Below are positions 14,141 to 15,232 of a DNA stretch of 64,000 bases, one piece after another. A program made the translations under genes and the position numbers. Each line of letters begins with the position of its first letter. Positions within the stretch are counted from its first letter, which is position 1. The stretch is from contig NC_089722.1 in the NCBI RefSeq assembly GCF_035083965.1, forward strand, positions 25,355,081-25,419,080. The letters are read 5' to 3'. The notes beneath the pieces were generated by a model. That model was not told the origin of the DNA and did no database searches. It worked only from the letters and a program-made list of their open reading frames with translations. The DNA is from Branchiostoma lanceolatum (taxonomy: Eukaryota).

Positions 14141-15232
14141 GGGTTTACTCAAAATGCATGTACAGTTGTCATCATCATCATCAGTTGGCTGTGAAGCAGT
14201 CGATCACACATATGTACATAGTAGGATTGGTCAGTCAACCAATCGTAGGGAATTACGCTGAGGAAGCGACCTTTGACCTCCGCTCGTGCCGCCTTCATTA
14301 ATAGCGACATCCGCCGTCCCTACGGCTGGGCTCGCCTCCCGCTCAATGTTCCGTTGAAAATGTCCCCCTCTCGAGTCTTCACGAAGTATTTCAACCTACC
14401 GTACGCTGCTCCCCAACTACCGAGGCACATCTATCCGCCAAGAAACTTGCGGGTTGCCGTCCCCGTTGGGCCCAACGTGCACTCAGACAGCAGGGCTGCG
14501 GTGTGCAAGTACAGCACCGTGCATGGGCCGCCAGTAGCGTTGCCCACCTGGATTCGCCAGTTCTAAGCGAGAGGCTCCACCCGACCCTGAGTCTCTACAC
14601 TGTCCGTAATCCTTGGCGACGTCCTGCAGCGAGTTTTCTTCACCAGCCTGGGACCGCGCACCCGTTCCTCCCTGCTCCTGAGTTTGTGCTCCAACGTCCA
14701 CACAGAGAGTCTACAGAACGGAACGACAGCCCCCCTCCCCCTCCCCATTTCCCGCCGGTGACGCCGGGTCTCGCGAGAGAGGCTCCGCGAGATGCCCGAG
14801 ACTTTGGCAGCCATGTTTCTTCTCGTGAACTACGTAAACAACTCCTCCACGAGCAGTCCTTCCTCAGCGCCCGCCTTTCTCCCTCCCCACCCGTACCTAC
14901 ACGGACTCGAGGCTGCGACGTGCATCTACAGCAGCTTGCACAAGGCTACCAGTACACCCACTCCACGTCGACGCGAAGTTTACTTCCGGCCCGACTCGGA
15001 GTTCGCGGCGCGCGGCAGCGCCCTGTCGGCGAGATCGTCTCCAGCCTGGGACCGCCGAACCGCAACTACTGAACTTAAGAGTAGAGTAGAATAGATTAGA
15101 GTAGTTTTAGCACAGCTAGATTGACAGTACATCAAGACCAGCTCCAGCTGTGTACATTTACTCAAAATGCATGTACAGTTGTCATCATCATCATCAGTTG
15201 GCTGTGAAGCAGTCGATCACACATATGTACAG
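14141..15232. repeat. ~0.9-kb CpG-rich insertion flanked by 78-bp direct repeats (14141-14218 and 15155-15232) in NPHP3-like intron 17
   Basis: The repeats tttactcaaaatgcatgtacagttgtcatcatcatcatcagttggctgtgaagcagtcgatcacacatatgtaca are near-identical. The interior is 60-65% GC with an inverted CCAAT pair gattggtcagtcaaccaatc at 14224-14244. Confidence 0.7.

Follow-up and report, generated by a model that had tools for sequence, protein, structure and literature searches.

The stretch of Branchiostoma lanceolatum DNA analysed here, 64 kb long and hereafter called the window, carries on its plus strand an NPHP3-like gene with exons spread from about 5.5 to 16.8 kb. The gene encodes the Pfam domains DUF4062, NPHP3_N/NACHT/AAA_16 and TPR_10/TPR_12, and the Pfam domain TPR_NPHP3 is recorded for its allele in a second assembly and for its ortholog. 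Further along, exons at 20.5-22.6 kb encode uL18m/MRPL18, identical (100%) to the B. lanceolatum protein XP_066298026.1. The window also holds an Rfam match to mir-2060 (49024-49117), a microRNA mentioned in a study of Branchiostoma belcheri miRNAs.

An earlier note on this DNA had pointed to a foreign-looking insertion within an intron of the NPHP3-like gene, and the location is borne out. The intron is of phase 0, and its flanking exons align to NPHP3-like genes called at both comparison loci described below. Its length of 1388 nt is largely made up of the insert (X) and one copy of the direct repeat that brackets it (D), which together account for 1013 nt and leave an intron of 375 nt. The features referred to throughout are as follows.

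14087-15474, plus strand: host intron, phase 0, 1388 nt, with GT at 14087 and AG at 15473-15474
14144-14218, no strand: D1, left copy of the target duplication (TSD), matching 15157-15231 at 75/75 positions
14144-14164: sub-part a of D, 21 nt, ending in TGTACA
14165-14218: sub-part b of D, 54 nt, GTTGTC...CACATATGTACA, ending in TGTACA
14219-15066, minus strand (inferred): GC- and CpG-rich body of X, 848 nt, GC 0.61, CpG o/e 1.04
14225-14244, no strand: inverted CCAAT pair GATTGGTCAGTCAACCAATC, beginning 7 nt inside the fixed end and also forming the terminal hairpin
14305-15069, plus strand: stop-free frame of 255 codons with no ATG, probably not coding
14630-14833, plus strand: cryptic exon candidate, 204 nt, preceded by ag and followed by gt; the equivalent segment of a second copy is annotated as a coding exon of Hypp4377
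15067-15156, no strand: AT-rich end of X, 90 nt, GC 0.39, zero CpG, ending in TGTACA
15157-15231, no strand: D2, right copy of the TSD; homology to the allele and the ortholog restarts directly after it, at GTAATGAAG

The direct repeat consists of two identical copies of 75 nt and extends on neither side. Its left edges read GGG/TTTACTC at D1 and ACA/TTTACTC at D2, and its right edges TGTACA/TAG and TGTACA/GTA (the slash marks the edge). The repeat had been described as two near-identical copies of 78 bp; it is real, but its copies are perfect over 75 nt and the edges given for them were off by 2-3 nt. No other long perfect repeat is dispersed anywhere in the window. Between D1 and D2, X occupies 938 nt (14219-15156), and no second copy of X occurs in the window. 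The hexamer TGTACA, which has a background of about one per kb, ends a, b and X alike.

In composition, X has a GC content of 0.586 and a CpG o/e of 1.00; the corresponding values for the whole window are 0.424 and 0.68. The claim that this block is the richest in GC and CpG holds for the three top-GC 500-nt segments and for the top CpG count (42 per 500 nt), all of which fall in X, but CpG o/e is higher outside X (1.46 at 47751-48250) and the last 90 nt of X are AT-rich. The body of X lies within the usual limits for a CpG island (GC > 0.5, CpG o/e > 0.6, length > 200 bp). The AT-rich end contains an (AGAGT)n-like run, reported by a tandem-repeat finder at 15078-15104, and has no match in the rest of the window or in any fetched locus; it may be either a part of the element or extra DNA from the 5′ junction or the source locus. 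X further contains a diverged two-fold repeat whose units are offset by about 398-427 nt, with a local score of 33 against 13.8 ± 1.9 for shuffles. At about 60% identity this internal repeat is old, and is not a partial tandem of the insertion. The inverted CCAAT pair was correctly reported and occurs once in the window, where 0.03 matches would be expected by chance.

The empty site

Using the MRPL18 protein as a handle, the matching locus was fetched from other assemblies. This provided an allelic locus (L004) from BraLan3, a second B. lanceolatum assembly (GCA_927797965.1), and an orthologous locus (L002) from B. floridae x B. japonicum (GCA_015852565.1), which have in common the gene order NPHP3-like, MRPL18, MVP. 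At a B. belcheri locus (L003) the upstream neighbour differs. The allele matches the window on both sides of the insertion: positions 3807-4114 correspond to window 13824-14131 at 97.7% identity, and positions 4244-5386 to window 15287-16438 at 89% identity. The distance between these flank matches is about 130 nt in the allele and 1155 nt in the window. With X and one D taken out, the window intron can be aligned with the orthologous intron over its full length, and X has no match anywhere in the allelic or the orthologous locus.

The comparison of haplotypes that the earlier note had proposed thus finds X absent from the BraLan3 allele, and this absence, together with that from the ortholog, indicates a polymorphic insertion. 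By sequence comparison, X is an insertion polymorphic within B. lanceolatum, as the description of it as inserted, foreign-looking DNA would have it; the empty site and a second copy elsewhere in the genome (see below) both point to mobile DNA. The same comparison bears on the suggestion that X is a CpG island or a nested transcription unit: its composition is that of a CpG island, but it is not conserved, being absent from allele and ortholog, and the reading as a conserved resident island is rejected.

The BraLan3 allele reads ...TTCTGGC-TTAACTCAATATGTATGTACA-GTAATGAAG... and so contains sub-part a, the first 21 nt of D, in a single copy with the right flank GTAATGAAG directly next to it. 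Three of the 21 positions of a differ between BraLan3 and the window, while D1 and D2 are the same. Since a is present singly at the empty allele, D is intron DNA; and since, in addition, D was not found beside the second copy of X, the 75-nt repeats represent duplicated target rather than the termini of an element. Judged from the aligned sequences, then, they are a TSD and not LTRs, with the reservation that the available empty allele has only 21 of the 75 nt. The view that such a repeat is too long for a TSD does not survive these two observations. Sub-part b, the remaining 54 nt of D, is missing from BraLan3; this is most simply explained by an independent indel of 54 nt, bounded by TGTACA microhomologies, on a deeply diverged haplotype. 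The placement of b conflicts between pairwise and three-way alignments with the ortholog, and the species are too diverged to show b as ancestral.

These findings also dispose of the case for a TRIM-like miniature LTR element, another proposal of the earlier note, in which the 75-nt repeats would be LTRs. The direct-repeat architecture is the only support for this reading, which we regard as extremely improbable. The empty allele already has the first 21 nt of the supposed LTR in place, and no such repeat accompanies the interior in its second copy. D starts with TTTACT and not with TG, and its outer flanks (GGG/.../GTA) show no duplication of 4-6 bp. Inside the right repeat, the sequence ...CCAGCTGTGTACA is not purine-rich, and inside the left repeat TAGTAGGATTGG offers no evident site complementary to a tRNA. 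X does resemble TRIMs in having a small non-coding interior between short direct repeats, but differs from them in that its repeats are target DNA and in having no TG..CA ends, PBS, PPT or short outer TSD.

An artefact of assembly, in which a repeat copy came to lie between duplicated contig ends of 75 nt through a mis-join or gap fill, would account for the perfect identity of D (75/75) and for the absence of X from the other assembly of the species. Amphioxus genomes are highly heterozygous, and this heterozygosity is known to trouble assemblers. Against an artefact, the window contains no Ns, and X is genuine amphioxus sequence, as its second copy attests. Further, presence/absence differences are normal at this locus: within 17 kb, the same pair of haplotypes is also distinguished by at least eight further indels of 300 bp or more, in either direction. 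We therefore consider this explanation very improbable. None of the other polymorphic insertions in the allelic locus or at the locus of the second copy has long flanking repeats around it.

Three further possibilities were considered and rejected. A Helitron is ruled out by the 75-bp duplication and by the hairpin-proximal end, which reads CTACTA or CTATTA and not CTRR. Template switching at the TGTACA microhomologies, giving the order a-b-X-a-b, fails in that no TGTACA precedes TTTACTC in the template for the step from X to D2. Lastly, a 26-bp CCAAT array at 15703-15975 has 15 of 16 nt in common with the end of X, but this array is aligned in the ortholog that lacks X, and no link between the two is accepted.

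A second copy on another chromosome

When the 255-aa translation of the stop-free frame was searched exhaustively with HMMER against 1.84 billion representative proteins, one real match emerged, the Hypp4377 protein (CAH1270649.1; P0001), residues 42-112 of which are 90% identical to the translation of X over 71 residues. The other match (P0002) was rejected as compositional only, and comes from an unrelated genome. Word-indexed searches of 5.8 billion proteins, with the X frame and the host exons as queries, gave no matches, and exact-pattern scans for X in metagenome and viral contigs were empty.

The Hypp4377 gene, whose protein has TINF2_N and Forkhead domains, lies on another BraLan3 chromosome (OV696692.1; locus L001). 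There, positions 10411-11090 of the locus align with window 14217-14897 at 94.9% identity, with 34 substitutions and one 1-nt indel. The left terminus of the two copies coincides to the nucleotide, reading ACA/TAGTAGGATTGG in the window and TCA/TAATAGGATTGG at L001, and the right ends differ, with homology at L001 ceasing 259 nt short of the right end of X (n=2). Both copies are sharply bounded GC islands in AT-rich flanks, that at L001 having a GC content of 0.594 between flanks of 0.39. No TSD was detected around the L001 copy, where the best flank alignment scored 10 against 8.8 ± 1.1 and so lies within noise. The search for further copies that had been recommended thus succeeded in finding one, at 94.9% identity, but not one carrying the 75-bp termini. 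X is probably a member of a dispersed repeat family, of which we have two copies on two chromosomes.

Neither of these copies can be the donor of the other, because X exceeds the L001 copy by 259 nt, and because BraLan3, the very assembly that holds the L001 copy, has a haplotype without X. The age of the insertion bears on its source as well. D1 and D2 are identical at all 75 positions, while nearby allele differences amount to 2-17%, and for an insertion dating back to the 5.1% divergence of the two copies of X, such identity would have a probability of about 0.02. The insertion of X is consequently recent, and it is still polymorphic. With neither copy as donor and an insertion younger than the 5.1% divergence, a third, source copy is implied.

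At L001, part of the repeat is annotated as protein-coding. The 204-nt segment corresponding to window 14630-14833 is given there, at about 10822-11025 of the locus, as an exon of Hypp4377, an internal exon and not a first exon, and its ag/gt splice-site dinucleotides are kept in both copies. It forms a proline-rich stretch that interrupts the N-terminal part of the protein. This repeat-derived exon is either a case of exonisation or an artefact of annotation. The equivalent segment of X, if spliced into the phase-0 host intron, would read into a TGA stop.

Long open frames had been reported on both strands of X; the plus strand does have one, of 255 codons and without an ATG, but those on the minus strand are ordinary (101 codons at most). 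The plus-strand frame is statistically unusual, its length being reached by 1 of 2000 dinucleotide shuffles of X, and a stop-free frame is present in 25 of 5000 shuffles of the X core. It is broken by a frameshift in the L001 copy, and is probably non-coding. Pfam finds no domain in any of the six reading frames of X, and there is no reverse transcriptase (RT) or endonuclease coding sequence. Similarly, Rfam (at the gathering threshold and at E<=10) identifies no RNA gene and no ribozyme, including hammerheads, in X, and ARAGORN and Rfam yield no tRNA-like head and no 7SL or 5S match. Two weak snoRNA-like matches at 14106-14133 were dismissed (E of 2 or more). Neither end of X bears poly(A) or a clear microsatellite tail; the shared end reads ...CCAATCCTAYTA(TG), without an A-run or clear repeat.

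Orientation and route of insertion

[quoted passage not shown] The perfect target duplication, the clean junctions, the shared terminus and the variable other end all fit transposition with staggered cleavage. A minus-strand orientation, with the 3′ end at 14219, is suggested because one end is shared and the other ragged, the signature of TPRT. This pattern of a fixed and a variable end comes from two copies, and the L001 copy could have lost its far end by later deletion. A further, weak hint comes from the hairpin. On the minus strand, the RNA of both copies would form a hairpin with an 8-bp stem and a 4-nt loop, 6 nt from the end, closed by a U.G pair in the window copy and by a C-G pair at L001. 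On the plus strand of the window copy the hairpin pairs over 7 bp only, so that this change, a single substitution, may preserve pairing on the minus strand alone.

Under this model, the element would run antisense to the host gene, on the minus strand, and the short hairpin and then CUAYUA(UG) would close its RNA. In the target, the plus strand would be nicked after ...CATATGTACA, and the freed 3′ OH would prime reverse transcription of the element RNA. The minus strand would be nicked 75 nt away, between 14143 and 14144, and fill-in of both 75-nt 3′ overhangs would generate D1 and D2. The L001 copy would be a shorter, 5′-truncated product of the same process. The enzyme would be supplied by a LINE or Penelope-type partner, and copies of the family would be expected to have in common the terminus ...GGATTGGTCAGTCAACCAATC...TAGTAGG.

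Several observations count against this model. The statistically unusual open frame lies on the plus strand, opposite to the proposed orientation. There is no TSD at the L001 copy, no tail, and no RT or endonuclease sequence. The BraLan3 allele, without b, calls for an extra TGTACA-flanked indel, and the TGTACA at the ends of a, b and X is unaccounted for.

Capture at the level of DNA, in which a fragment of a GC-rich repeat was joined or copied into a staggered break in the intron and the 75-nt ends were filled in, would need no transposition machinery. The captured fragment might come, for example, from extrachromosomal or broken-chromosome DNA. Such an event is compatible with the lack of poly(A), coding capacity or recognisable TE termini in X, with the palindrome TGTACA at both junction-proximal ends, and with a locus full of other indels between haplotypes; the 90-nt piece of different composition at one end suggests patchwork. 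Yet the left ends of X and of the independent L001 copy are equal to the nucleotide, a coincidence not to be expected of random fragments. Each copy is also an island with sharp boundaries, and the junctions on either side of the perfect duplication are clean. We consider capture unlikely. Of the earlier suggestions, a tandem duplication with captured DNA is nearest in form to what is found here, but what was captured belongs to a repeat family whose terminus is fixed, and a terminus common to two copies fits transposition better than random capture.

An element in the opposite orientation would have its 5′ end, or transcription start, at the left, with an internal CCAAT/TATA-like promoter, and its 3′ end at ...GCTGTGTACA; the 255-codon frame would then be a decayed ORF, and the L001 copy would later have lost its 3′ part. 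The unusual stop-free frame does indeed read along the plus strand, stopping 87 nt short of the right end of X; a TTAATA motif lies about 55 nt downstream of the CCAAT pair; and plus is the strand exonised in Hypp4377. Retroposed copies, however, normally share their 3′ and not their 5′ ends, and here it is the right ends that differ. The frame has no ATG and no Pfam match, is frameshifted at L001, and has no homolog beyond the L001-derived exon. Neither a polyadenylation signal nor a tail was found at the right end of X, and the hairpin change preserves pairing on the minus strand only. We consider a plus-strand element unlikely as well.

Known systems and consequences for the host

The minus-strand retroposon proposed above resembles 5′-truncated insertions of non-LTR retroposons (LINEs and SINEs) made by TPRT in several respects. 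A target duplication flanks X, its copies share one terminus and differ at the other, and X would lie antisense in an intron, present or absent between haplotypes. Stringent-type LINEs recognise a 3′ stem-loop, and X has a short hairpin close to its shared end. There are also clear differences. The TSD of X is 75 bp compared with the usual 10-20 bp of APE-type LINEs (PMC6895275), X is without a poly(A) or simple-repeat tail and without reverse transcriptase, and its body is unusually rich in GC and CpG and carries a diverged internal two-fold repeat (two copies examined).

A long TSD is not in itself foreign to LINE machinery. The stagger between LINE nicks ranges from 2 bp in R2Bm to 126 bp in R9, with 10-20 bp for APE LINEs (PMC6895275). 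R9, an R2-superclade LINE of bdelloid rotifers with a restriction-like endonuclease, produces a 126-bp TSD according to that source, which cites Gladyshev & Arkhipova 2009. There, LINE machinery is described as able to nick strands about 100 nt apart, leading to a very long perfect TSD (PMC6895275). Within this range, a 75-bp TSD is rare but not without precedent. R9 is specific to 28S rDNA and autonomous, whereas X is intronic and non-coding, and no claim of a sequence relationship is made.

Penelope-like elements provide a looser parallel. Their insertions are frequently 5′-truncated and may have odd 30-40 bp 'tails' at one end (PMC8557442), of which the odd 90-nt end of X is loosely reminiscent. 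In contrast to these elements, X has no pseudo-LTR partial tandem, no hammerhead ribozyme, and no RT or GIY-YIG sequence.

In its broader setting, X is an ordinary presence/absence polymorphism of a transposable element in a highly heterozygous genome, and stands out only by its long and perfect TSD and by the CpG-island-like composition of the element. If a 75-bp TSD proves typical of the family, it would point to an enzyme that integrates DNA with an unusually wide stagger between its nicks. We speculate, as a long shot, that X belongs to an undescribed family of CpG-island-like non-coding retroposons in amphioxus, mobilised by an endonuclease/RT with a nick stagger of about 75 nt and possibly a preference for the palindrome TGTACA, and carrying NF-Y (CCAAT) sites and splice sites into genes, with one copy exonised (204 nt, in frame) in a TINF2_N/forkhead gene.

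For annotation, the Hypp4377 case serves as a warning that the 'exon' in question is repeat-derived. The host gene of X belongs to a NACHT/TPR family of immune type, a class that one paper (PMC12373286) describes as enriched in the variable portion of the pangenome of a basal chordate. The repeat brings CCAAT boxes and usable splice sites along within a mobile CpG-rich block, so its copies could alter the splicing or regulation of the genes in which they land.

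Presence/absence differences between haplotypes

The two B. lanceolatum haplotypes, the window between 11.8 and 29 kb and L004, the allelic BraLan3 locus that lacks the GC- and CpG-rich insert X, are distinguished by eight or more presence/absence differences, each measuring 0.3-2.2 kb, among them:

Window 12493: +883 nt in L004
Window 18038: +2.2 kb in L004
Window 19565-20276: +0.7 kb in the window

Candidate target-site duplications, which are short (8 or 15 nt), are found at some of these differences. At a smaller scale, a 54-nt indel (window 14165-14218 versus L004:4149-4171) is bounded by direct repeats of TGTACA, the same motif that terminates the right end of X; this palindrome stands at three boundaries. 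A second repeat family (window 29006-30000) matches L004:24153-23159 and L001:4026-3278, the latter on another BraLan3 chromosome, with inter-locus identities of 95-98%. Its L004 copy, immediately past the collinear block, runs opposite to the window, an arrangement that suggests either an inversion or an independent insertion.

A second copy of the repeat in Hypp4377

The insert X in the window is matched by a second copy of its repeat at L001, and an annotated exon lies within that copy:

L001:10411-11090 (BraLan3 OV696692.1): second copy of the repeat of X, with an annotated exon at about 10822-11025

This 204-nt coding exon (residues about 42-112) belongs to Hypp4377, a protein combining TINF2_N and Forkhead. 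The repeat-derived exon represents either exonisation of the repeat or an artefact of the gene model.

Tandem arrays and small RNA matches

CCAAT-box motifs also recur close to X, in the intron that follows one exon downstream of its own:

Window 15703-15975: 26-bp tandem array, consensus CTATGATTGGTTGATCTTGTGCAACA, with CCAAT-box motifs recurring in the units

One unit shares 15 of 16 nt with the reverse complement of X's terminus. The ortholog from B. floridae x B. japonicum aligns across this region, so the array is older than X, and a relationship between the two is improbable.

Directly upstream of the left target-site duplication, weak intronic matches to C/D-box snoRNAs at 14106-14133 (SNORD39, E=2.2; Afu_294, E=9.5) score far under gathering and probably reflect chance. 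A mir-2060 precursor match (Rfam, 73 bits; window 49024-49117) falls within a run of three tandem units, each about 43 nt long (49023-49151). Identity to the first unit is 86% and 69% for the other two, and the run looks like a small tandem array of miRNA hairpins. A GC-rich 87-nt tandem duplication, with copies 92% identical, occupies 40164-40337.

Gene neighbourhood

Two further genes mark the surroundings of the NPHP3-like gene:

Window 1-2300 (left edge): exons of fibronectin-III/Ig type belonging to a large muscle-protein-like gene
Near window 26.7 kb: start of the major vault protein gene

At the B. belcheri locus (KV411306.1), a GPHR-family gene and a gene encoding 2524 aa lie upstream of MRPL18 in place of the NPHP3-like gene. 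Consequently, adjacency of NPHP3-like and MRPL18 genes is not common to every Branchiostoma species.
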